A stretch of 64,000 nt of DNA from the NCBI RefSeq assembly GCF_963921235.1, contig NC_086097.1, positions 67,024,001 through 67,088,000 on the forward strand, read 5' to 3'. Positions 5,964 to 63,980 of the stretch are shown here, piece by piece; within the stretch, counting starts at the first letter, position 1; the number at the start of each line of letters is the position of its first letter. Made by a program: the position numbers and the translations under genes. The notes beneath the pieces are model-generated. The model was not told the DNA's origin, searched no databases, and saw nothing but the letters and a program-made list of their open reading frames with translations. Origin of the DNA: Mobula hypostoma (taxonomy: Eukaryota).

Positions 5964-8900
5964 GAACATAGAACAGTACAGGCCCTCCGGCCTACATTGT
6001 TGTGCTGACCCTTAAACCTCGCCTCCCATATAACCCCCCCACCTTAAATTCCTCCATATACCTGTCTAGTAGTCTCTTAAACTTCACTAGTGTATCTGCC
6101 TCCACACTGACTCAGGCAGTGCATTCCATGCACCAACCACTCTCTGAGTAAAAAAACCTTCCTCTAATATCCCCTTTGAACTTCCCACCCCTTACCTTAA
6201 AGCCATGTCCTCTTGTATTGAGCAGTGGTGCCCTGGGGAAGAGGTGCTGGCTCTCCACTCTATCTGTTCCTCTTAATAACTTGTGTAGCCCCCCTGGCCA
6301 GCCTCGGGGTCGCTCGGCTCGCTGTCATCTAGGGAAACAGCCCTCGGCCCCGCCAAACTGGATAATTAGTTTGTGTGGATGCTGTGTGATATACCCCACC
6401 CCGCCCAGATAACAGACAATACACCAGATACGATTAAATGATTTACAGTTTATAGATATTACTGGAACTATATAATTAATAGAGAATAAAATATAAAAGG
6501 AAAATAAAAGGCGCCACACTTATCAAAGTTCAATCTCTTCGTGCACAAAAAAAGTTGGAGCTCAAGACCCTCCTTCTTCCTTCGACCCCTCGGACCACCT
6601 CGACCAGCCGCCTGGGACCAACAACAGTGGTCAACCAGACGCTCTACACGAGTCCGTCTCTGTCTCCTCTCCTCGCCGAACGCCCCGCTTGGGGTCTGAC
6701 CCTGTTAGTGGACTCACAGCACCTGGTCCATACTCTGTCTCTCTCTCTCCCGCCTTCTTCCCAAAACCCCGTGCATACAGTATCTTCAAATACATCAAAA
6801 ACATAACAACTATCCCAATTGGTTCATAACATCTTCTTATCAGTAACGTGATTCAACAAACTGCTAGCGGGAAGGTCTTTCTCAGCGTTTAACATAACAA
6901 AGAAGCATTCCCAAGTATAACATAGCAAAGAAGCCATTTTAAATTTAACATACAAAAAAATACCCGTACACTTGTATACCTCTATCATGTCTCCTCTCAT
7001 CCTCCTCTTCTCCAGAGAGTAAAGCCCTAGCTCCCTTAATCTCTGATCATAATCCATACTCTCTAAACCAGGCAGCATCCTGGTAAATCTCCTCTGTACC
7101 CTTTCCAATGCTTCCACATCCTTCCTATAGTGACGCGACCAGAACTGGACACAGTACTCCAAGTGTGGCCTAACCAGAGTTTTATAGAGCTGCATCATTA
7201 CCCCGCGACTCTTAAACTCTATCCCTCCACTTATGAAAGCTAACACTTCATAAGCTTTCTTAACTACCCTATCTATCTGTGAGGCAACTTTCAGGGACCT
7301 GTGGACATGTATCTGCTCCTCCACACTTCCAAATATCCTGCCATTTACTTTGTAATCTGCCTTGGAGTTTGTCCTTCCAAAGTGTACCACCTCACACTTC
7401 TCCGGGTTGAACTCCATTTGCCACTTCTCAGCCCACTTCTGCATCCTATCAATGTCTCTCTGCAATCTTCGACAATCCTCTACACTATCTACAACACCAC
7501 CAACCTTTGTGTCATCTGCAAACTTGCCAACCCACCCTTCTACCCCCACATTCAGGTCGTTAATAAAAATCACGAAAAGTAGAGGTCCCAGAACCGATCC
7601 TTGTGGGACACCACTAGTCACAACCCTCCAATTCGAATGTACTCCTTCCGCCACGACCCTCTGCTTTCTGCAGGCAAGCCAATTCTGAATCCACCTGGCC
7701 AAACTTCCCTGGATCCCATGCCTTCTGACTTTCTGAATGAGCCTACCATGTGGAACCTTGTAAAACCCATATAGATCACATCCACTGCACTACCCTCTTC
7801 TATATGCCTGGTCACCACCTCAAAGAACTCTATCAGGCTTGTTAGACATGATCTGCCCTTCACAAAGCCATGTTGACTGTCCTGATCAGACCATGATTCT
7901 CTGAATGCCCATAGATCCTATCTTTAAGAATCATTTCCAACAGCTTTCCCACCACAGATGTAAGGCTCAGTGGTCTATAATTACCTGGACTATCCCTACG
8001 AACTTTTTTTGAACAAGGGGACAACATTCGCCTCCCTCCAATCCTCCAGTACCATCCCTGTGGACAACGAGGACATAAAGATCCTAGCCAGAGGCTCAGC
8101 AATCTCTTCCCTCACCTCGTGGAGCAGCCTGGGGAATATTCCCTCAGGCCCTGGGAACTTATCCGTTCTAATGTATTTTAACAACTCCAACACCTCCTCT
8201 CCCTTAATATCAACATGCTCCAGAACGTCAACCTCACTCATATTGTCCTCACCATCATCAAGTTCCCTCTCATTGGTGAATACCGAAGAGAAGTATTCAT
8301 TGGGGACTTTGCTCACTTCCACAGCCTCCAGGCACATCTTCCCACCTTTATCTCTAATTGGTCCTGTCTTCACTCCTGTCATCCTTTTGTTCTTCACATA
8401 ATTAAAGAATGCCTTGGGGTTTTCCTTTACCCTACTCGTCAAGGCCTTCTCATGCCTCCTTCTTGCTCTCCTCAGCTGCTCCTCAGACCCATCTGATCCT
8501 TGCTTCCTCAACCTCATGTATGCTGCCGCCTTCCACCTGACTAGATTCTCCACCTCACTTGTCACCCATGGTTCCTTCACCCTACCATTCTTTATCTTCC
8601 TCACCGGGACAAGTTTATCCCTAACATCCCGAAACACCGACCACATGTCCATAGTACATTTCCCTGCCAAAACATCATCCCAATTCACTCCTGCAAGTTC
8701 TAGCCTTATAGCCTCGTAATTTGCCCTTCCCCAATTAAAAATTTTCCTGTCCTCTCTGACTCTATCCTTTTCCATGATAGTGGTAACGACCAGGGAGCGG
8801 TGGTCACTGACCCCCAGATGCTCACCCACTGAGAGATCTGTGACCTGACCCGGTTCATTACCTAGTACTAGATCTAGTATGGCATTCCCCCGGTCAGCCT

Positions 8901-9832
8901 GTCCACATACCGTGACAGGAATGCGTCCTGGACACACTTAACAAACTCTGCCCCATCTAAACCCTTGGAACTAATCAGGTGCCAATTAATATTAGGGAAG
9001 TTAAAGTCACCCATGATAACAACCCTGTTATTTTTGCACCTTTCCAAAATCTGCCTTCCAATCTGCTCCTCTGTATCTCTGCTGCTACCAGGGGGAGTAT
9101 TCTATAGGCCCAGTAGAGTAACTGCTCCCTTCCTGTTCCTGACTTCCACCCATACTGACTCAAAAGAGGATCCTGCTACATTACCCACCCTTCCTGTAGC
9201 TGTAATAGTATCCCTGACCAGTAATGCCACCCCTCCTCCCCTTTTCCCCCCCCCTCTCTGTCCCTTTTAAAGCATTGAAATCCGAGAATATTGAGAATCC
9301 GTTCCTGCCCTGGTGCCAGCCAATTCTCTGTAATGGCCACCACATCATAATTCCATGTATGTATCCAAGCTCTCAGTTCATCCCCTTTGTTCCTGATGCT
9401 TCTTGCATTGAATTACACACACTTTAGCCCTTCTACCTTACTACCTTTACACCCTTTATTCTGTTTCCCTTTCCTCAAAGCCTCTTTATATGTTAGACCT
9501 GGCTTTACTCCATGCACTATACTTGCAGTTCTCACATGACCTTTATCCTCCTCCACCTCACTATCAGCTCTAACACTCTGGTTCCCCTCCCCCTGCAAAT
9601 CTAGTTTAAACCCCCCGGAGCAGCACTAGCAAACTTTCCTGCAAGGATGTTAGTCCCCCTCCAGTTCAGGTGCAACCTGTCCCGTCGGAACAGAGCCCAC
9701 CTTCCCTGGAACAAGGCCCAATTGTCCAGAAACATGAAGCCCTCCCTCCTGCACCAACTCCTTAGCCACATATTTAGCTGCATTATCTTCCTATTTCTAG
9801 CCTCACTCGCACATGGTACGGGTAGCAATCCT
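5964..9832 (-). mobile_element. Younger CR1 LINE: 3' end of ORF1 (SGNH esterase-like) and frameshifted ORF2 (APE endonuclease and RT)
   Basis: ORFs 9601-9837 (RDRLHLNWRG), 7996-8937 (LDLVL, SDH), 6824-7702 (GVPQGSVLGP, KFADD); (catagaa)n tail; GTCATA TSD. Confidence 0.95.
6284..6970. mobile_element. Solo LTR (Gypsy-type likely) inserted in CR1
   Basis: TGTA...TACA termini; 4-bp TSD CTTG (6280-6283 and 6971-6974); 687 bp; the CR1 sequence resumes exactly on both sides. Confidence 0.85.
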
Positions 9833-9929: not shown

Positions 9930-11021
9930 CTAGAGTGAACTCCTGCTTCTGCAAGGACTTGGACCTACTGCCATTTGCCTATTGCCACAATAGGTCTACG
10001 GCAGACGCAATCTCAATGGCCCTTCACGTGGCCCTTGATCACCTGGACAGTACAAACACCTATGTCAGGATGCTTTTTGTTGACCATACTTTGCCTTTAA
10101 TACCATCATTCCTACAGTCCTGATCGATAAGCTTCAGAAACCTGGGCCTCTATCTCCCTCTGCAATTGGACCCTTGACTTCCTAACCAGAAGTGGATTGG
10201 TAATAATATCTCCTCCTCGCTGACAATCAACACTGGTGCCCATTGCTCTATTTCCTCTATACCCATAACTGTGTGGCTAGTTACAGCTCAAATGCCGTCT
10301 AAAAAATTTGCTGATGATACAGCCATTGTTGGTAGAATCTCAGATGGAGACAAGGCATATAGGTCCAAGATGTACCAGTTAGTTGAGTGGAGTCACAGAA
10401 ACAACCTGGCACTCAATATCAGTAAGACTAAAGAGCTGACTGTGGACTTGAAGGGCAAGATAAGGGAACACTAAACAATTCTCATGAGGGATCCATTGAG
10501 CAATTTCAAGTTCTTGGGTGTCAAGATCTCTGAGAATCATACCTGATCCCAACATATTGATACAGCTATAATGAAGACTTGATAGTGGCTATATTTCATT
10601 CAGAGTTTGAAAAGATTTGGTTTGTCACCTTAAACACTCAAACTTCAGATGTACCTTGGAGATCATTCTGACAGGCTATCTGGTGTGCGAGGGTCCTGAG
10701 GAAGGGTCTCAGCCTGAAACGTCAACCATTTACTCTCTTCCATAGACGCTGTCTGGCCTGAGGTCCTCCAGCATTTTGTGTGTTGCTTGGATTTCCAGCA
10801 TCTGCAGATTTTCTCTTGTTTGTGATTGAACACTACCTCTTTTTTAAAATATTATTTCTGTTTTTGCATTACTTTTAATTATTTAATATGTGTATATACA
10901 TTATTTATTGTAACTGATTTCCTTTTTCTCCCCCCTATATTGTCGTGTATTGCATTGCACTGCCGGCGCGAAGTTAACAAATTTCACAAAATACGCTGGT
11001 GATATTAAACCTGATTCTGAT
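9930..11021 (+). mobile_element. Degraded Rex/Babar-type non-LTR element, RT to 3' tail
   Basis: [25 protein letters not shown]...VRMLFVD; KFADDTAIVGRIS; (ctgatt)n tail. Confidence 0.82.
10691..10832 (+). mobile_element. Penelope-terminus fragment with hammerhead core
   Basis: ggtc-CTGAGGA-agggtctcagcct-GAAA-cg-TC-aacc; downstream sequence homologous to the arm at 42397-42487. Confidence 0.75.
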
Positions 11022-32969: not shown

Positions 32970-33104
32970 GTGGGCAATAAATGCCGACGTTGCCCACATC
33001 TCAAAACTGTTTTCTTTTGCAACTCTGGAAACCTGAAAATGAAAACTCATTTTAAATTCTTGAGACAAGGATTTAATTTAAAGATTTTAATTCTTGCATT
33101 TTAG

Positions 33105-33352
33105 ATGCTAACGATTGTGGGAAGATACAGAAGACATTATTAGATCGTTGGAGAGAGTCTCTTCTGGCATGCACCAGCTTAGCTCAGGTTTTTCTTCATC
33201 TCTCCACACTGGATCGTAGCATTATATGGGCCAAATCTTTGCTAAATACTCGCTGTAAGATCTGTCACAAGAAGGGCGATGCAGAAAACATGCTTTTGTG
33301 TGATGGCTGTGATAGGGGTCATCACACATACTGCTTGAGACCAAAGGTCAAG
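33105..33352 (+). CDS. BAZ1A: BAZ1A coding exon (N-terminal part of PHD finger)
   Basis: ttttag|...|gtttgt; 248 nt; LLDRWRESLLACTSLAQVFLHLSTLDRSIIWAKSLLNTRCKICHKKGDAENMLLCDGCDRGHHTYCLRPKVK. Confidence 0.98.
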
Positions 33353-33458
33353 GTTTGTGCCTAAAACTTGCTTTTTATATATAAAAATAAGCAAACTGTT
33401 TAATCTGTCTCCTGCCATTTTCAAAGTAATATCCTTTAATGTAGTCAATTTCTCTTAG

Positions 33459-38764: not shown

Positions 38765-39110
38765 AACATGAGATTCTGCAGATGCTAGAAGTCCAGAGCA
38801 ATACACACAAAATGCTGGAGGAACTTGGCAGGTCATGCAGCATTTATGGAAATAAATAAACAGTCGATGTTTCAGGCTGAGACCCTTCATCAAGACTGGA
38901 CAGGTAGGGGAAGATGAAAGAAGTGGAGAGAGAAAGAGGACTGTGTATCCCCTATCACCTTTTTTTTACCCGTCCACCGCCCCCCCCCCCCCATTTTTAT
39001 TCTGACATCTTCCCCCTTTCTTACCAGTCCTGAAGAAGGGCCTTGGCCTTAAACTTCAACGATTTATTCATTTCCATAGATGCTCTCTGATGTGTCGAGT
39101 CTCACCAGCG
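38765..39110. mobile_element. Fold-back Penelope-terminus-derived element with two opposed decayed hammerheads
   Basis: Minus-strand motif 38861-38898 (TTGATGA...GAAA) and plus-strand motif 39025-39061 (CTGAAGA...TAAA) within diverged inverted arms. Confidence 0.75.
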
Positions 39111-39427
39111 ATGTCTTACTGCTGGCTTGTCTTCCATCAGTGATCATTTGTCTGGTGCTATTAAATAACTTTTGCCAATTCAGTCAGTTTGAATGTATTT
39201 ATTTGATTCTTATTTATCTCGCTGCTTGTCCTATTGGCAGTTTTTTAAATCATCCATCAATTTGGAGACTATAAACAGGTATTTTGTATGTGCATTAAAA
39301 AATTTTTGACTGCTGCATAAGGGCACTGAAATAAAAGTATAATAAAATAGCTGTTGCAAAGAGTTAAATCATTAGTTTACTTGGTTAGCAAAATGTTGCG
39401 ATCATGATCAAAAGGAAACCAGACCAA

Positions 39428-41075: not shown

Positions 41076-41524
41076 TGATAAATAATAATGAAAAGGCTTC
41101 TCTAGGTATTCATACCCCTTCCAGAGATTGAGATTCAGTTCTCATTTTCTTAGGAGCTCCTTGAGGTCAAAGGTGACTGGCTTTACTCTAATTCTATTGG
41201 CTTTGAAGTGTCTTGAGACAAAAACAGGCAACTAAATTATTACTGTGGGTTGGGGGTTGTGTTCTTTGAAAGGTCCCTATCACAGTTTATTGTAATATGT
41301 AGTTGCATCATCTGCACGTGTGTCAAGAACACATTGGAGGGGGGAAGATTTGTTTATTTTTTAATTTTATCCCATATTTACATTTTTGGTCAGTGAACAG
41401 CCATAATAGGGAGGCTCACATGTATAGGTCACAAGTGTGGTAGGAGATGTTGATGAGCTGGTATGGGAAGTGGTGTGCATTTTCTCTAACTGTTGGTGTC
41501 ATCCTCATGTGTTTCACAGTCAGT

Positions 41525-41810
41525 TAGGGTAGCACAATAGTCTAGCAATTAGTACAGTTGCTTTACGTTAGTGATCGGAGTTCGATTCCCTCCACTGTCT
41601 GCAAAGGGTTTGTATGTTCTCCCCGTGGCTACGTGTGGTTCCCCCGGATGCTCTGGTTTCCTACCACATTCCAAAGATGTACAGTTAGAGTTGGTGGCCA
41701 TGCTTTCTGGGCTGCTCCCAGCACAATCCTCAATGTGTTGGCGGTTAATGCAACACTATGCATTTCATTGTATGTTTCAATGTATGTGACACATAAAACT
41801 AATCTTTAAA
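41525..41810 (+). mobile_element. tRNA-derived V-SINE (HE1-like)
   Basis: B box GAGTTCGATTCC; V-domain gtttgtatgttctccccgtg...ggtttcctaccacattccaaaga. Confidence 0.8.
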
Positions 41811-42260
41811 ATCTTCAGGGATTCCCACGATTTGGTGAGAATATTGCTCTTTATCAAGGGGGTTTTGAGATCATCTTACCTTCTAGTAATCCCTTACTGT
41901 GATACAACTCAGGTTGCCTGTTTCAGCAGTCCACCAGACTTCTGAATAGGGTCATAATAGAAATTGAGCCAATTAAGCCAGTCAAATTTGAATGTTGTCA
42001 CCTGTTTGGTTCAGCAATCTTCATTGCAAGTAGGACTAGTGAAGTTAGGAGGTTCAGCAGCCCATTGGTTACTGAACTATTAAAATATCAAACAAATGTT
42101 AGATTTGGAGAACCATTTTGAATGGGGTTTAGAAAGGGTAAAAGCAGCAGTAGCTAGTGGAGATGCTTTTGAGCTGATGTAAAAATTCTGAATGATAAGG
42201 CAATTGATGAAAAACCCAGGATTAAAACTTTTTTATTGAAATGGGCAGTAGGGTTAATGG

Positions 42261-42487
42261 CAAACAACAGGAATTCTGCAGATGCTGGAAATTCAAGCAA
42301 CACACATCAAAGTTGCTGGTGAACGCAGCAGGCCAGGCAGCATCTATAGGAAGAGGCGCAGTCGACGTTTCAGGCCGAGACCCTTCGTTAGTCCTGACGA
42401 AGGGTCTCGGCCTGAAACGTCGACTGCGCCTCTTCCTATAGATGCTGCCTGGCCTGCTGCGTTCACCAGCAACTTTGATGTGTGTTG
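42261..42487. mobile_element. Young palindromic Penelope-derived insertion
   Basis: 91-bp perfect inverted arms 42298-42388 and 42397-42487 with an 8-nt spacer; TSD tagggttaatgg at 42249-42260 and 42488-42499. Confidence 0.92.
42390..42425 (+). ncRNA. Minimal type I hammerhead ribozyme motif (no stable helix III)
   Basis: AGTC-CTGACGA-AGG(gtctcgg)CCT-GAAA-CG-TC-GACT: helix I, CUGANGA, helix II, GAAA and UH all present; activity untested. Confidence 0.75.
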
Positions 42488-44447
42488 TAGGGTTAATGGG
42501 GTCACTTTTGTATATCATACACAAAAAGAGGTGTACAAAGAAATAATTAAAGGAGTATATGAAATGAGAATAACAATTGAAGTAAGATGATCAAGAGTTC
42601 CTTGACGCATAGGTGAAAGCAAATGTCTGAGTGAATGAATTCCTCATCAGGTTGGGAAAGGGAGGATAGACACCAGGATAAGGGAGGGAAGATAAAATGA
42701 CAATAGAAGTGAGTGGTATGTGAGAGTCATTGTAATTTATCTGGGGGAGAAGGGGGGAAATATGGGGTGAAGAGAGAAACGAAGGGGATTAGGGAAGCAT
42801 TAAGAAAGATGCTTAGTGAAGTAAAATGAATGAGGCATTCAAAAAGGAAGCAAAAATGACGCAGATATATATGAAAGGTCAGCCTTCTAATCAGTTTATT
42901 CAGATATCTGGAAGACTGACAAGTCTCTGTGGCTGATCAAGTTCAAGGGTGATTTTGCTGAGTGAGAGGCGGTGCGCTGATCTGGCAGTCTGCAGTAGAG
43001 ATGACATGAGGGTGAACGTGGCATAAGGATAAGATTACACTCTAAGTTGAGTTTTGGAGAGTGAGCTAAAAGTTATCAAGTCCACTTATCTAATGGTCTG
43101 AGAAATAGGGAGAGTCTGTTAATGATGATCAGCATTTAAATTGTTAAAGTGCACCATAGCTGAGATGTGGAGAGAACATTTATAGCAATAGGCCACTTTT
43201 TTATATAATATAAATATATATATATCTTCACTCTTTACTGCAAAGATTAGGAGTTTCTCTTTTGAAAGACTTTGGAAATTACTGCATTACCTCCATTTTA
43301 ATGTTGAGATTTTATACCTGCACATTAGTTAGAGCATACAGAGGCAACTTGGCCCAACCAATTTGTTGCTTAACTTGCATGTAAAGAAGCTCTTCTACAT
43401 CATATTATTCAGCTTGTTCCATGTTCAGGAAGTCATTTTTTTTCTTTCTAGCTATCCAATATGTTTAAGTGTTGATATAGTTTGTCTTGACCACTGAGCC
43501 ATTTCTATTGCTGGCAGCTGTTTCGTTTCAAGGTCTCAGACCTGTGGTATTCTGTTGCATTCTCCCCAACATTTTTGCAAATTGGAACTTTTTCTTTTAA
43601 GTTTAAATGCTGTTCCAATTTTAACCTATTGTTCTGTACTTTTTTTCAAAACCCTCTGATATAGTACCCCTGGTTTGTCAAATCACGTGACATTTTGTGT
43701 TTATTACAGAAATGAGCATCCCACCTCATCATAAACACAATTGACCAAATCATCCTTCTCCAAAACCTCCCAGCTGAACGTGTACACAACCTGCTTTGAT
43801 TTTTATTTTATCTAATTGTAATCAGGGAATTAACCCCAATAGCTGCTCTTCCTTTACCCATGCTGTTACTAGTTATGTCCCACTAGAATTTACTCTTGGC
43901 TCTCTTCCTTTGTTTTATGTCTTTATACTCTTCTACCAGCAACATTATCTAAAAGCGTGTCAGTTTTTACATGTAAACTTGGCTATATATCAGCATTACC
44001 ATGACCTGATTTTTACTGTTTCTCTAAATTGTAGTCTACTTTGTCTATTACTGTAAACTGATAATTATCCAAGTACATAATAGGATGATGAATGCCATTG
44101 GCTTAGCTTGCCTCTTGGAAACTTGTACATTTATTGCACATAGTGTGATGGATCATTGTGTGCCATGTTCAAAATATTTGCTCAAATGTCCAATTTTTTT
44201 GTTATACTTAAAATTTCTGTTTATTAAAGTATCATGATACTCGTGAGGTAAATATGAAACCACTAATTATTGAATTACTCAAAAAGCTGATTCATAAAAT
44301 TATTATACTTTTGTGGATACTCTGCATAATCAAATACTAACGTAATTTATTAATCCTTGTCTAACATTTCCTGAGCTATGAAATAAATGCAAAGCTCAGC
44401 TTGTGTTCACATGAATTTAAAGCTACAATTTTAATTTCTTTAAAAAG

Positions 44448-44602: not shown

Positions 44603-44936
44603 GTACACAGAAATACATATTTGTTGATGCAGTTTGTTATAGTCTGTGAAAATGAGGATTAGACCAGCTGTTCCTCAATTTATGAAAAAAATGCATTCCT
44701 GAATAACATTTTATTTAAAATTTTGTATGTCAAAGGCTGAATGAAATTGGGCATTTCAGTAGAAATGTTCCAATGTATAAAGTGGATTGTAATTACTTAG
44801 TGGAAAAAAAAACTTTAAGCAATTCTTCCAGTATGAATTGAAAACTTGCTGCAATGTGTTTTTATGTCTTAATCAGAATGTATACGTATGGCCAAGAACT
44901 AAAATTTCTCTAACAGTACCTTTATTTTCTTTACAG

Positions 44937-45024
44937 GTTACTGACTACTATGACATTATTAAAAATCCAGTTGCCTTAAATATCATACGGGAGAAACTAA
45001 ACAGATGTGAATATAACTTCGCAT
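44937..45024 (+). CDS. BAZ1A: BAZ1A coding exon (bromodomain ZA loop and helix A)
   Basis: ttacag|...|gtaagt; 88 nt; VTDYYDIIKNPVALNIIREKLNRCEYNFA. Confidence 0.97.
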
Positions 45025-45963
45025 GTAAGTTTAAGGCTTGCTGTGGGTTTACATGCTTTCTTATTGTCCTGTATTTCAAGTAAATGCCTGTGATTTGTTT
45101 GCTTTTAGGATAACCATAATTTTCATTAACTATCCAGCAATAACACTCTAAATCTGTGCTGTAAGAAATACTTGAGCTGCAGACTTTGATTTAGCCATTT
45201 TCTCTTGACGAGGAAAGGTGGGATCATTCTAAAGACCTTGTCTCCTTCATTTGTGACCTAGCCAGCCTTGGGACTTTCTTGATTGCAGTACTAACTTCTG
45301 ACACTGACTACAATTTACTTAATCTGAAATACAACAGAAAATTAGATTTAAGTTTACAGTAAAATTCAGTTCATCTGACACACTCAGGATTTGGATGACG
45401 CCAGACTGACAGATTTTTCAGACTACAATGCAATTTCAATTTACTCCCCAAAACACTTGATTTCACTTTTAAGATACTGTCCAGTAATGTAAATAAATGC
45501 TCTGCAGAGGTTTAACATGATATAGGTTAGCACTCCTGTGCAATTAAGAGGAAGTGTAGGCCTATTAAAGTGGCCGACTTTTGGGGGAGATTTTTTTATC
45601 AGAAACACTGTATCCTTTCTCAAGTAGTATTAAAAAAAAAATTCGCAGCACTACTTGAAAGCACAGAGAGGTTATTTTTGTTCTGTTATTAGGATGTTGT
45701 TGCTTGTAAATTGTTTCCATGTTAACATCAGTGACTGCGTTTTGATCAAACTAAAGAATGCAGAGGAGTTTCCAAATTAATTTGAATCTGTCTTGCTAAC
45801 TCAGCATGTACGAAGACCAGAAGTTCTCATTATTTTGAGAAAATTATATCAATGACAGGTTGTCAATATTGTCTGTATGACTGCACAGTTCCAGAACATA
45901 AGAGGCATTGAAGCAAAGCAGAGTTGTGCCTAAATTTGCATATTATCATGTCAAAGCACTTTA

Positions 45964-47914: not shown

Positions 47915-50900
47915 CAAGGATTTCAGATGGTCAGACTTTGCATTTTATGGGGGAAGTATGACCTGTTCAAAAAGGACAGGTTACACCTGAACCCGAAGGG
48001 GACCAATATCCTGGCGGGAAAGTTTAATAGAGCTGTTAGGGAGGGTTTAAACTAATTTGGCAGGGGGATGGGAACTGGAATGGTAGAGCAGAGGAAGGGG
48101 AAAACAGAAATAAATCTAAGGTAGTGAGCAGTAAAGATGTCAGGAAGGACAGGCAGGTGATGGGGCAAATTTGCAGCCATTGGGATGAGTTGCAGTGCGA
48201 TCAAAGCAAAACGTACCAAATACTGGACTTAAGGTGTTATACAAACGTTTGTACTTAAATGCATGCAGCATAAGGAATAAGGTGAACGACCTTGTCATAC
48301 AGCTACAGATTGGCAGGTATGATATTGTGGCCATCATTGAGACGTGGCTAAAGGATGCATGTCTCTGGGAGCGGAACGTCTAAGGATACACGGTGTATCG
48401 GAAGGATAGGCAGGTAGGCAGAGGGGGTGGCGTGGCTTTATTGGTAAGAAATGATATTAAATCATTAGAAAGAGGTGATATAGGATCGGAAGGTGCAGAA
48501 TCTTTATGGGTTGAGCTAAGAAATCGCAGGGGTAAAAGGACCCTGATGGCAGTTATTTATAGGCCTCCAAACAGCTGCAGTGATGTGGACTACAAATTAC
48601 AACAGGAAATAGAAAAGGCTTGTCAGAAGGGCAGTGTTATGATAATTGTGGGGGATTTTAACATGCGAGTGGATTGGGAAAATCAGATCGGCACTGGATC
48701 TCGAGAGAATCTGTAGAATGTCTAAAAGATGGCTTTTTAGAACAGCTTGTTGTTGAGCCCACTAGGGGGTTGGCTGTACTGGATTGGGTATTGTGTAATG
48801 AACCAGAGGTGATTAGAGAGATTGAGGTGAAGGAACCCTTAGGAGGCAGTGATCATAAAATGATTAAGTTCACTGTGAATTTTGAGAAAGAGAAGCCGAA
48901 ATCCGATGTGTCAGTATTTCAGTGGAATAAAGGAAATTACAGTGGCATGAGAGAGGAACTGGCCAAAGTTGACTGGAAAGGGACACTAGCGGGAAGGACG
49001 GCGGAGCAGCAATGGCTGGAGTTTATGCGAGAAGTGAGGAAGGTGCAACACAGATATATTCCAAAAAAGAAGAAATTTTCAAATGGAAAAAGGATGCAAC
49101 CGTGGTTGACGAGAAGTCAAAGCCAAAGTTAAAGCAAAGGAGAGGGCAAACAAGGAAGCAAAAATTAGTGGGAAGACAGAGGATTGGGAAGTTTTTAAAA
49201 GCTTATAAAAGGAAACCAAGAAGGTCATTAAGACGGAAAAGATAAACTATGAAAAGAAGCTAGCAAATAATATCAAAGCGGATACTAAAAGCTTTTTCAA
49301 GTATATAAAGAGTAAAAGACAGGTGAGAGTAGATATAGGACTGATAGAAAATGATGCTGGAGAAATTGTAATGGGAGATAAGGAGATGACGGAGGAACTG
49401 AATGAGTATTTTGCATCCGTCTTCACTGAGGAAGACATCAGCAGTATACCGGACACTCAAGGGTGTCAGGGAAGAGAAGTGTGCGCAGTCACAATTATGA
49501 CAGAGAAAGTACTCAGGAAGCTGAATAGTCTAAGGGTAGATAAATCTCCCAGACCAGATGGAATGCACCCTCATGTTCTGAAGGAAGTAACTGTGGAGAT
49601 TGCAGAGGCATTAGCAATGATCTTTCAAAAGTCAATAGATTCTGGCATGGTTCCGGAGGACTGGAAGATTGCAAATGTCACTCCGCTATTTAAGAAGGGG
49701 GCAAGGAAGCAAAAAGGAAATTATAGACCTGTTAGCTTGACATTGGTGGTTGGGAAGTTGTTGGAGTCGATTGTCAAGGATGAAGTTACGGAGTACCTGG
49801 AGGCATGTGACAAGATAGGCAAAACTCAGCATGGTTTCCTTAAAGGAAAATCCTGCCTGACAAACCTAGTGCAATTTTTTGAGGAAATTACAAGTAGGCT
49901 AGACAAGGGAGATGCAGTGGATGTTGTGCATTTGGATTTTCAGGCGGCCTTTGACAAGGTGCCACACGAGGCTGCTAAACAAGATAAGAGCCCATGGAAT
50001 TATAGGAAAGTTACATACGTGGATAGAGCGTTGGCTGACTGGCAGGAAACAGAAAGTGGGAATAAAGGGATCCCATTCTGGTTGGCTGCCCGTTACCAGT
50101 GGTGTTCCACAGGGGTCTGTGTTGGGGCCACTTCTTTTTACTTTGTACATCAACAATTTGGATTATGGAATAGATGGCTTTGTGGCTAAGTTTGCTGATG
50201 GTACAAAGATAGGTGGAGGGGCTGGTCGTGCTGAGGAAACAGAGTCTGCAAAGAGACTTGGATAGATTGGAAGAATGGGCAAAGAAGTGGCAAATGAAAT
50301 ATAATGTTGGAAAGTGTATGCTTATGCACTTTGGTAGAAGAAATAAATAGGCAGACTATTATTTAAATGGGGTGAGAATTCAAAGTTCTGAGATGCAATG
50401 GGACTTGGGAGTCCTTGTGCAGGATACCCTTAAGGTTAACCTCCAGGCTGAGTCGGTAGTAAAGAAGGTGAATGCAATGTTGGTATTCATTTCTAGTGGA
50501 ATAGAGTATAGGAGCAGGGATGTGATGTTGAGGCTCTATAAGGCGCTGGTGAGACCTCACTTGGAGTACTGTGTGCAGTTTTGGGCTCCTTATTTAAGAA
50601 AGGATGTGCTGACGTTGGAGAGGGTACAGAGAAGATTCACTAGAATGATTCTAGGAATGAGAGGGTTAACATATGAGGAACGTTTGACCGCTCTTGGACT
50701 GTACTCCTTGGAGTTTCGAAGAATGAGGGGGGGGACCTCATAGAAACATTTTGAATGTTGAAAGGCATGGACAGAGTGGATGTGACAAAGTTGTTTCCCA
50801 TGGTGGGGGAGTCTAGTATGAGAGGGCATGACTTAAGGATTGAAGGGCGCCCATTCAGAACAGAGATGCGAAGAAATTTTTTTAGCCAGAGGGTGGTGAA

Positions 50901-51060
50901 TCTGTGGAATTTGTTGCCATGGGCGACAGTGGAGGTCAACCTGAGTAGCCAGGGCATCAAAGGTTACGGTGAGAAGGTGGAGTGGGACTAAATGGGAGAA
51001 TGGCAGAGCAGACTCGATGGACTGAATGGCCAACTTCTGCTCCTTTGTCTTATGGTCTTG
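47915..51060 (+). mobile_element. CR1 LINE: ORF1 3' end and frameshifted ORF2 (EN and RT)
   Basis: KKDRLHLNPKGTNILAGKF; LYLNACSIRNK; YRPPNS; GDFN; SDH; 288-aa ORF 49323-50189; PQGSVLGP; tcttatggtctt tail. Confidence 0.95.
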
Positions 51061-52736: not shown

Positions 52737-53053
52737 TATTTCCTTGCAACATGTTTGTTCTTCCCTCGCTATGTCTTATGTCTCCTCCAGAAATGTAAAA
52801 AAAAATGCCCTCACTAACTGCTCAGTCAGTATTGCCATCTTGCATTCAACCTCTATTGAATCATAAATATTCTGTTTGTTCCTAGCACTCCTCCTCTGTA
52901 GCTTGTTTGATTTGTAACTTTTAGTTTAAGGTCATCAACCTAAAGTATTCTCTTTCCATAGATGTTGCTTGACCCGCTGAGTATTTTCAACGTTGTTTTG
53001 ATGCATATATCTTAAAAAGGGTTAAGATCCACTGTAATTTTTTTTCTTTTCAG

Positions 53054-53250
53054 CGGATTTTATTGATGATGTGGAATTGATGTTTACAAACTGCTTTGAA
53101 TACAATCCTCGAAACACGAGTGAAGCCAAAGCTGGGATAAAACTTCAAGCTTTCTTTCACAATCAAGTAGAAAAACTGGGATTGACAATGAAACCTGCCA
53201 ATGTGGACCATCCACCACAACCTCCAGTTACTAAAAGGTCAAGAATTTAA
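53054..53250 (+). CDS. BAZ1A: BAZ1A last coding exon (bromodomain end, stop)
   Basis: tttttcttttcag|; DFIDDVELMFTNCFEYNPRNTSEAKAGIKLQAFFHNQVEKLGL...TKRSRI-TAA; human ends KKSRI. Confidence 0.98.
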
Positions 53251-56039: not shown

Positions 56040-56945
56040 GACAAGAACCTGTAGATGTTGAAAATTTGGAGCAATGTACAAAATGCTAGTTGGGCAGCAA
56101 TATGGAGAGAAATGACCAGTCAGCATTTTTGGCCAAAACCCTCCATCAGGACTGGAACAGAAGAGGGGAGAAGCACAAGCAAGAGGGAGAAAAGTCAGAA
56201 AGATGAGAAATGATATGTGGAAGAGGCAAAGGACTGAGCAAGATGGGAAAAGACAGCAGACCATGGAATAAAGGGAAGGAAGTATGATCGATAGCTCGTG
56301 AAGGGAAAAGAGGAGGGATGAAGGGGCCAGAGGAACACAGGAAACTAAGGGAACAGAAGAAGGGGGTTATCTTGACTCTATTTTTGTCCCCCTTGGTTTA
56401 GTGTCTTCCCATATGCTCTCTTCGACTTTTATCAGCTTTCTGTACCCCCAGCCATGACCATGCATGACCAGTCCAGTGCACTTCTAACCCCTATCAGGAA
56501 GGCATTGAGCCTCTTTGCTCAATAACACATCCAACAAGTTCCCCTCCAAAACAATTTCATGCAGAGGCAGTACTGGTGCTCACCCTCTACAACTTCCCTT
56601 TTGTTTCCTACCACTTTCCCCAGATCAAAGGTCTGGAAAAAGCACATGCATGGGCCTTAACTATACCTGCCATTTTGTTGGCTACATAGAATGTGTTGTG
56701 TTCAAAACTTGCAGCAACAAGGCTCCTCAATTCTTTCTCTGCCACAGTGACTACTCATTAGTTCATCAACTTCACCAACTTCCACCTTCCCACTTCTTGA
56801 TCTTTCTGTCTCTATCTGGAGTCAGATTATCTACCCCAATCTTTTACAAACCCACTGACTTCCCTTATCCTTGCATACCACTCTTGAGTCTCTTCATCCA
56901 ACGTATCAGTCTCTGCAACTTATGGGATCCCACCACTAGATACGT
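56040..56945. mobile_element. Penelope-like element: inverted terminal segment (-) joined to a degraded RT fragment (+)
   Basis: Minus-strand decayed hammerhead 56117-56154; plus strand TCMGLNYTCHFVGYIE and RLSTPIFYKPTD resemble Penelope-type RT motifs (MGPSYACLFVGYVE, STDIYYKPTD). Confidence 0.75.
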
Positions 56946-61199: not shown

Positions 61200-63980
61200 T
61201 TACTCCCCTCTGCACCTCACTTTTAAATGACTACCCTTTAGTCTCCCACTAGCGGTAATATCCCTATCTTGTCATGACCTTAAAGATCTTGTAATTTTTC
61301 AATAAGATTATCCCTTATTTGTCTAAACTCAAAAGAATACAGGTGTACTTTTTAACCATGCATGACAGAACTTCTCTTTCCAGGAACTAAGCTAGTGAAT
61401 GTCTTTTGGAATGCCTCCTTATTAGCAAGGCCCTCCTGAAATAAAGGGTATAGACCTCTACAGAGTAATTCAGGTGCAATGTTACTGATGCCACGTACAA
61501 TTTTAACAATACTTGACTATTTTTAAACTCCATTGCTCCAGCAATAAAAGCAAATATGCCATGCCTTACTTACTGCTCTGACATGTTAACTTCTACTTCA
61601 TGCACTATGCAGATGAACCCTCTCTGAATGTTCTGGATCCCTCTGTGCTCCACAAATTGGCAGTTTCTCTCTATTTATATAATAGCCCACCTTTTGATTC
61701 TTCCTAAATGTTCCTACTTTGAACTCTATTCAACATATTTTTGCCCATTCACTGAACCTATCAATATCCCATTGCAGAATCCAATAACTCTCTTCACAGG
61801 TTGCTCTCCTGATTCATCAGCAAACTTGAAATCCCATATTTTGACCCTCTTCAAAGTAATTAAATAAATGAGCACCAAGGTCTCAGCAGTGGGGTGCTCC
61901 ACTAGTAATATCTTTCTTGTCTGGAAAAGACCTTGTTGTTCTCTCAGTTTTCAACGTAATAACCAGTCTTCTGCCAATAATAACATTCATTATCTTGCCT
62001 ACTAGCCTTTTGTGTGGTATTTTATCAAATGTCTTCTGAAAATACACAAATATAATTTCCCCGGTACAAATTTATCACAAAAACACATTGACATAGAGAG
62101 ATCATAGAGAGAAACAGTATGGAAAAATGCCCATCAGCTCCACAAGCCCATGCTGACTCTCGGCCACCCTTATACATTAATCCTATTTTTTATTCTCTAC
62201 ACATTCTCCCCAAACCCACCCACCTCTCCCCCCATTCTACCATTACTTACACAAGTGAGGTATTTTACAGTGGTAATTAATCTACCAACATGCATATACT
62301 GTACTTGGGATGTGGGAGGAAATGAACACTTGGAGAGCACCCAAGGGAGAATGTACAACCGTCCACAAAGGCAGCACCTAAGGTTAGGAGTGAACCGGGA
62401 CCACTGATTCTGTCAGGCAGTGGTTCTACCAGTTGTGCCACTGTGTCAACATGGTTTGATTGTATTAAGCTTTTCTAAATGACCAGTTATCTCCTTCTTG
62501 ACTGTAGATTACACTACCATCCCAATAAGTGATGCTACATAAAGTTTCATGCTTTTTTTTTTAATTTTCCACCCTTCTTAAACACAGTTTTCCAGTCTAT
62601 TGTACCCTACTGAAACAAATAATTCTCTTCTAATGAACACAAGAAATTCTGCAGATGCTGGAAATCCGAAATAACACACACAAAATACTGGAAGAACTCA
62701 GCAGGTCAAATCTCTACTAACCCTGTTGCCACTATACTTAATGACCATAAAATTCTGGTGATTTTTCTGCTTTCAATTTCAGTAATTTTTCTAATACTTT
62801 GTGTAGGGATTTCTATAAATTCTTCCTTCCTATCTGAAGCCAGCCTTAGAATGCTTAAATGTTCTGTCATTTTCTCCATTCTTATTTTTAACTTTTTGCT
62901 TTCAACCTCATGATCTATGTTTACTTCAGCCACCCTCTGTTTTGTTATACTGTATATCCATAAATGGATTGTGCAGTTTGTTCTGGTAGTACCTCTCAGT
63001 TTACTCCTGTAATTAATTTTCTCCCTCCCTGTTAACTTTTTACTCTTCCATTATTAGATCCTAAATAAATCCTACTCTCTTAGCCTACCACTGGGTTTTG
63101 CACTTTGTATACTTTACCTTTAGATGTGGTATTTTTCTCAATCTCCTTTGTTAGCCATGGATGATGGATCATCTTTCTCATTGAGCCTTTCTATTTGATT
63201 CGGATAAGTTTCTGCTATGCATTATGAAATATCAGCCAAATACTAGCCACTGCTCATCCTGCTTTTTAACTTATTTTTTCAATCCACTCCTTCATACCTT
63301 TATAATTGTCCCTTCTATTACTAAAATTAAGGACTCCTTTTGGACCCAAAGTGTTCACCCTCAGCTGTTTCTACCATGTTGTCATCACTGATCCACAGAT
63401 TCTCCTAAACAAGATTTTTATTATTCTACCTCATTATATCAGATTGAATCTAAAATGGCCTGTTCATGAGTAGTTTGAAAATGTATTGCTCTAAGAAGCA
63501 ATCACTGACGCCCTCCACAAGCTCTTCTTCAACAGTAGCCTTGTCAGTTTGATTAGTCAATCAAAATCACTTAATTAAAATTAAGATCACTTATAATTGT
63601 ACTTCATTTGTATCATTGGCATTTCACTATTTATGTTTTGTTCTACAAGTGAGGAAATATTTTGGGGCTTCCCATCTGTGTCATCTTTCCCCTGCTGTTC
63701 CTTATTTCCACCCAAACTAATTCCACTTTGCAATTTACTGCATCTATATCATTACTCACAAGGGCACTAATGCTCTTCTTAATTACTAATGCAACTTCAC
63801 CTCCTTTTTCATTTTGCCTTATCTTTTGTAGCATTGAATATCCTGGAACATCAAGTTCCTAGTCCTGCTCTCACCGCAATCTTGCCTTTCTTATAGTTAT
63901 AATATAAAACACGTTTCTTTCTATTTGTGCCATTGATTTATTTATGATTGCTCTGATAAAAAGTTTTCAAACTTTGAATT
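61200..63980 (-). mobile_element. Old, heavily degraded CR1 LINE with SINE (about 62100-62445) and Penelope-terminus (about 62637-62708) inserts
   Basis: ORF 63643-63834 KGGEVALVIK...VELVWVEIRNSRGK; tcatcagcaaactt (KFADE) near 61813. Confidence 0.7.

Follow-up and report, generated by a model that had tools for sequence, protein, structure and literature searches.

A hairpin-shaped insert in the Mobula hypostoma genome: a head-to-head pair of truncated Penelope-like 3' ends, probably formed in a single insertion

A 227-bp insert in a presumed BAZ1A intron

We analysed a window of 64,000 nucleotides from the Mobula hypostoma genome (contig NC_086097.1, positions 67,024,001 to 67,088,000 of the forward strand). 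The + strand of the window contains open frames that match PHD-finger and bromodomain exons of BAZ1A (Table 1), and a hairpin-shaped insert of 227 bp lies between them. Judged from these flanking + strand exons, the insert appears to sit in a BAZ1A intron and is read here on the pre-mRNA strand, which agrees with the placement given in an earlier note made from the letters alone. The arms of the hairpin (42298-42388 and 42397-42487) are reverse complements with 91/91 identical positions, are separated by the 8-nt loop TAGTCCTG, and reach 94 nt if one mismatch is allowed. The TSD, gtagggttaatgg, measures 13 bp counting G42487 and 12 bp otherwise. Insert length, exact arms and TSD had all been described in the earlier note and were found again in the window sequence. 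The insert has a fold energy of -205.6 kcal/mol (z -29), and none of 200 shuffled sequences was equally stable.

Table 1. Features of the insert, its flanks and the host gene (window positions).
Feature	Position	Strand	Remarks
Open frame with BAZ1A PHD-finger exon, upstream of the insert	33077..33361	+	PF00628, E 1.1e-07
TSD, left copy, 13 bp	42248..42260	+	Present once at the X5 empty site
Penelope "tail", 37 nt, on one arm only	42261..42297	-	Tail described in PMC8557442, PMC3846280 and PMC11167929
Arm with tail: Penelope-like 3' end, cut within the hammerhead core	42298..42388	sense on -	
GT microhomology at the central junction, assignable to either arm	42387..42388	.	Window against parent copies
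Tail-less arm: 3' end of the element, beginning just 5' of hammerhead helix I	42389..42487	sense on +	
Tail-less arm, loop	42389..42396	+	
Tail-less arm, paired part	42397..42487	+	
Predicted minimal type I hammerhead, from the pseudo-LTR of the parent	42390..42425	+	Motif class in PMC4209133
TSD, right copy	42487..42499	+	
Open frame with bromodomain exon, downstream of the insert	44793..45080	+	PF00439, E 1.2e-05
Open frame with last BAZ1A bromodomain exon	53038..53247	+	PF00439; BAZ1A bromodomain 5uiy_A, E 1.4e-20

Contig 19 of run X5, which carries another organism label, joins position 42247 directly to 42487 and thus represents an empty site with one copy of the TSD. Over approximately 1,200 aligned letters, this contig differs from the window flanks by 23 letter changes and 4 gap letters (about 2%). 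Because the empty site in this related organism holds a single TSD copy, the insertion is real and young, as the earlier note had proposed. Contigs of run X1 cross both outer junctions of the insert (X1 is possibly the source sample and so not independent).

The window contains other repeats as well. In the same BAZ1A intron region, an older decayed relative occupies 38765-39140; its - arm (38897-38765) matches a young copy at 76%, and a + hammerhead-like remnant lies within it at 39030. Decayed Penelope-like pieces at 10693-10836, 56782-56860 and 62636-62709 match a young copy at 77-79%, the first of them being a tailed single arm that starts at the hammerhead. Frames at 48384-50988 and 6827-9412, in introns of the gene, were labelled from their translations as decayed LINE-like endonuclease and RT frames.

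The parent element and its hammerhead motif

Both arms of the insert correspond to the 3' end of a very abundant element. A hammerhead 28-mer with its native upstream bases has 46,540 exact copies in the 3.5-Gb genome, and a 23-mer from the 3' end of the element has 70,122. Of six parent frames searched, three contain GIY-YIG, with E values from 1e-4 to 2e-3 and one match lying at the curated cut-off. RT motifs and a DKG motif were read in the partial ORF frames of long copies, and the Pfam scan of the parent frames gave no RT match. Partial tandems form pseudo-LTRs that carry the hammerhead motif in sense relative to the ORF, and the tail continues into the N-terminal part of the ORF in tandem copies. 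As placed by its frames and motifs, the parent is an abundant endonuclease-positive (RT plus GIY-YIG) Penelope-like element, and the Penelope origin suggested in the earlier note is supported. The features of EN+ Penelope-like elements are all present, namely an ORF with RT and GIY-YIG, pseudo-LTR tandems, an inverted copy with a one-sided tail, and a hammerhead; RT with C-terminal GIY-YIG and a pseudo-LTR hammerhead are likewise described for such elements (PMC8557442, PMC3846280).

The best-studied comparison is the Poseidon element PAc of Anolis carolinensis (Frangieh et al. 2024, PMC11167929), in which two internal RT start sites bound the tail downstream of the hammerhead, the tail likewise runs into the ORF, and both target strands are nicked and extended. 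In contrast to PAc, the RT-EN linker of the parent carries a cysteine motif, which is given for the Neptune and Nematis clades (PMC8557442). In the available text of the PAc paper, inverted pairs are not discussed and "inverted" appears once, for a blocking dT.

Two observations on rearranged copies of this family may be recorded here. At G000:C2:157816736-157817691, the tail-ORF junction was matched four times at 310 bp spacing in a head-to-tail array, possibly a genuine retrozyme-like or satellite unit belonging to the family. In addition, the long copies L165, L182, L188, L206, L220 and L224 have one inversion breakpoint in common, approximately 1,470 nt from the 3' end, and this points to a rearranged source copy that has itself transposed repeatedly.

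The + strand of the insert reads AGTC-CTGACGA-AGG..CCT-GAAA-CG-TC-GACT, with the predicted scissile site after C42421, and its - strand counterpart has CTAACGA, lacks helix I and is cut inside the core; the intact and broken versions reported in the earlier note are thus both legible. We call it a hammerhead on comparison of the motif with those in Cervera and de la Pena 2014 (PMC4209133), whose minimal metazoan Penelope hammerheads share the type I core, the 4-bp helix I and the palindromic loop 3; opposite-strand hammerhead pairs 100-700 bp apart are also noted there. Unlike those hammerheads, the present motif has a helix II of 3 bp and, in the predicted fold, is masked by its own antisense arm. 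An Infernal-type check did not recover the motif: in the Rfam scan of 41500-43500, no hammerhead family was matched even with E values up to 10, and the matches obtained were miRNA-type hairpins only, all under gathering scores.

The core and helices I and II are present, and helix III is possible only as a dimer. In predicted folds, helix I has a pair probability of 0 within the full insert, compared with 0.92-0.99 when the motif is folded alone. Folded by itself, the motif retains helix I in its minimum-energy structure, but its core is paired. The "self-silenced ribozyme" of the earlier note therefore holds in silico as far as sequestration by the antisense arm is concerned. The element of design does not hold, since the hammerhead is the parent's own pseudo-LTR motif and its burial a by-product. 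We regard the hammerhead as a passenger, predicted to be buried in a 91-bp stem of the BAZ1A pre-mRNA. Single minimal hammerheads did not cleave in vitro (PMC4209133), and the hammerhead of the anole element required protein (PMC11167929). Given these findings and the predicted burial of helix I, cleavage of BAZ1A pre-mRNA by the insert is unlikely. The 91-bp intronic stem, if it forms as predicted, could be subject to RNA editing. Run X9 leaves the flanks of the insert uncovered, and depth from the repeat overwhelms the insert itself.

Recurrence of the junction and origin of the hairpins

Copies of the element were surveyed in an anchor sample comprising 97 of the first 100 listed exact anchors, which represent 86 events at the start of one contig. 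Directly abutting inverted pairs account for 36 of the 86 events and single arms for the other 50. Pair arms in this sample range from less than 100 bp to more than 1 kb, and the window insert stands at the short end of this continuum.

The exact 23-nt central junction of the insert occurs at 210 loci genome-wide. We analysed 112 distinct loci with the exact junction and found a separate TSD of at least 10 bp at 93 of them. The same junction thus recurs with different TSDs, as the earlier note had anticipated for a mobile family. Such recurrence is nevertheless no proof of one: the test does not discriminate, because the junction is one of about 35, the tail occurs on either arm, and subfamilies were sampled. 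A search for hairpins with a pivot near the hammerhead gave 4,799 strand matches, and the first 100 rows, sorted by hand, resolved into 70 loci with approximately 35 junction types. The window type is represented by nine of these 70 loci, and two other types by ten and nine. Among the 112 exact-junction copies, the tail is on the left arm in 61, on the right in 50, on neither in one and on both in none; 96 copies taken in genome order gave left 45, right 50 and neither 1. A one-tailed master would be unable to yield the opposite-tail form, and the occurrence of both tail sides therefore speaks for independent origins.

The arms also record where they came from. We scored arm haplotypes at seven subfamily sites. 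Of the 78 copies with every site covered, 62 have the same haplotype in both arms, compared with a mean of 7.1 and a maximum of 18 when arms were re-paired in 5,000 trials. Seventeen haplotypes are mirrored across both arms of exact-junction copies, and 13 of these (58 of the 62 copies) recur among 54 longer copies. The arms disagree at one or more covered subfamily sites in 25 of 112 copies, mostly at one. Six private variants are mirrored vs 50 found in one arm only, and the variants that are shared between copies in one arm are mostly CpG transitions, about equally frequent on both arms. Together, the many junctions, the tail on either side, the mirrored haplotypes and the continuum of sizes argue that the hairpins are independent at each insertion. 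They are likely to have been made afresh each time and not by a self-copying ribozyme element.

These data bear on two other readings of the locus. The earlier note took the insert for a member of a non-autonomous MITE- or retrozyme-like family, in which whole copies of one hairpin master would arise by transcription and re-insertion. The junction shared by 210 loci, mostly with their own TSD, is what such a family would leave, and one locus (L002) matches the window copy exactly over 225 nt. However, L002 and the window copy each have terminal element bases that are missing in the other, two further junctions are equally common, the tail is found on either arm, and the 17 mirrored haplotypes come from the pool of the parent; the CpG character and even distribution of the one-arm variants also count against shared descent of hairpins. 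One or a few masters, fixed ends and shared private changes, the marks of a non-autonomous family, are not what these copies display. Animal non-LTR retrozymes are likewise non-coding and Penelope-related and have a type I hammerhead (bioRxiv 10.64898/2026.07.22.740005; see also PMC7229834), but they are built as at least two head-to-tail units with a whole hammerhead in each, whereas the window insert is one inverted pair with a single whole motif. We consider the mobile-family reading largely refuted and very improbable. Still less credit can be given to an assembly fold-back. Perfect palindromes can be artefacts, and none of the listed contig pieces spans the hairpin end to end, yet the flanking TSD, the empty site with one TSD copy, the X1 contigs across both outer junctions, and the decayed arms of older copies (0-10 arm differences in 102 copies) make an artefact exceedingly improbable. 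The insert is very probably a one-off Penelope insertion product and is likely not able to move again; the locus itself is ordinary.

Tails, truncation points and the joining of the arms

The layout of the insert, an inverted truncated copy with one tail and a TSD, has already been published for Penelope-like elements. Insertion units of EN+ elements show the same head-to-head truncated copies, a single tail of 30-40 bp and a TSD (PMC8557442, PMC3846280). Unlike those units, the copies described here have arms of only about 90-130 nt without an RT or endonuclease domain, and their TSD lengths peak at 13-14 bp vs 8-10 bp in the rotifer examples. What we add to the descriptions in those two papers are counts of tails and of truncation points. 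Every one of the 31 sampled pairs in which both arms have a 3' end carries a single tail, and in a larger overlapping set one tail was found in 94 of 98 paired arm rows and two tails in none.

Truncation is concentrated at the 5' edge of the hammerhead. In the anchor sample, 40 of 112 arm ends fall within a 25-nt zone at this edge, which corresponds to a density of 16 per 10 nt compared with 0.3 upstream (approximately 50-fold). At base resolution, 50 of 93 rows begin at one of five positions around helix I, and single arms behave like paired arms in this respect (older-family rows were partly left out). The hot zone overlaps TTAGTCC and is preceded by branch-point, pyrimidine-tract and AG sequence; we take the former to be initiator-like and the latter to be splice-acceptor-like. 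The intron of the Drosophila virilis Penelope ends at helix I (PMC4209133), and its start site is 46 bp upstream of that intron (PMC2377424). In copies of older subfamilies (L136, L139 and L141), a TACTAAC-type branch-point stands upstream of the pyrimidine tract, AG and hammerhead, and such copies could act as splice acceptors where they lie in sense within introns.

The 5' ends of the copies are not concentrated where cleavage is predicted. A search for arms that begin within 14 nt of sequence around this site gave 1,629 matches (with a filter that passes about 0.28 of random flanks), and one covering 15 nt at the 5' margin of the hammerhead gave 12,612 (filter about 0.42; approximately 9 of the first 100 rows are older families). 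When the first 100 rows of the cut-zone matches were sorted by hand, approximately 9 began at the cut site, similar to adjacent positions; a script that allowed for CpG decay placed 0 of 30 there. Cleaved RNA was rejected as the template for want of a 5'-end pile-up at the predicted cut. We also rejected a spliced template with a common first exon, as the sequences upstream of truncated arms are unrelated and often adjoin the TSD, and the addition of an extra G through cap copying, which is inconsistent among single arms.

In the LINE-1 twin priming reportedly described by Ostertag and Kazazian in 2001, both nicks prime cDNA and an inversion junction with microhomology results. The two LINE-1 cDNAs are said to cover different parts of the RNA, whereas the same part is copied twice here. 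We found neither a twin-priming account of Penelope inverted repeats nor this family in the literature searched, which was mostly open-access, with Repbase and Dfam outside it. The insert is a head-to-head pair of severely 5'-truncated Penelope-like 3' ends, one of them tailed, that probably arose in a single event by paired priming. The element protein would nick both target strands approximately 13 bp apart, and reverse transcription would be primed at each nick on RNA from one source copy. The tailed arm would start at the distal start site and the tail-less arm 35-45 nt further in, and both cDNAs would tend to end where the hammerhead begins on its 5' side. Annealing of the cDNA 3' ends via a few complementary bases (GT/AC here) and repair would follow. 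Favoured stops combined with favoured microhomologies would let the same junction recur. This proposal joins the head-to-head layout to in vitro findings on the anole element, for which nicking and extension of both strands, two start sites that bound the tail and a modelled dimer are reported (PMC11167929). In vitro, both strands used the two start sites alike, and that work therefore leaves the strict one-tail coupling unexplained.

Alternatively, the cDNA or a self-primed antisense RNA could copy itself from a short internal complement, with the endonuclease trimming one tail. Such a fold-back would directly explain the identical arms, a hairpin is predicted across the hot zone of the parent RNA, and both arms end at nearly one point in many pairs. 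Junction palindromes have been read as self-priming (Arkhipova et al. 2013, PMC3846280), and the tail has been ascribed to endonuclease resolution (Craig et al. 2021, PMC8557442). However, the arm without the tail extends further in the 5' direction in 45 paired rows, the tailed arm does so in 31, and the two are equal in 14; the window copy belongs with the 45, and a tailed first strand could not template the longer tail-less arm without added trimming. The outer ends of both arms are uneven by 10-20 nt, and the ends of the tail coincide with RT start sites observed in vitro (PMC11167929), which also argues against fold-back. We consider fold-back, the main rival, an unlikely origin of the insert, although sequence by itself cannot tell it, with one arm trimmed afterwards, from paired priming.

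Paired priming leads one to expect tiny remnants of a partner beside single arms, and these were seen in 2 of 88. In six long pairs the arms are each other's closest relative in only about half, and the case for copying from the same source therefore rests on the haplotypes of short arms, where conversion after insertion could add to the mirroring. More tentatively, and with somewhat less than even confidence, we suggest that the stubs, in their tens of thousands, may be a genome-scale record of one ribonucleoprotein that primes both nicked strands on RNA from a single source, uses each start site once and runs off at a fixed RNA boundary at helix I. If so, most insertions would copy the 5' end of the RNA and the ribozyme cut would be minor. 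According to PMC11167929, the steps of Penelope transposition that follow first-strand synthesis await validation; testable constraints on them come from the one-tail rule, the same-source arms and the stop at helix I. Extrapolated from 36 pairs per 97 anchors at the start of one contig to all 70,122 anchors, the genome would hold approximately 26,000 inverted pairs, which could burden introns with a considerable amount of double-stranded RNA. One copy, L217 (423-700), has a further small inverted segment from the hammerhead region inside its central junction, a sign of repeated template switching.
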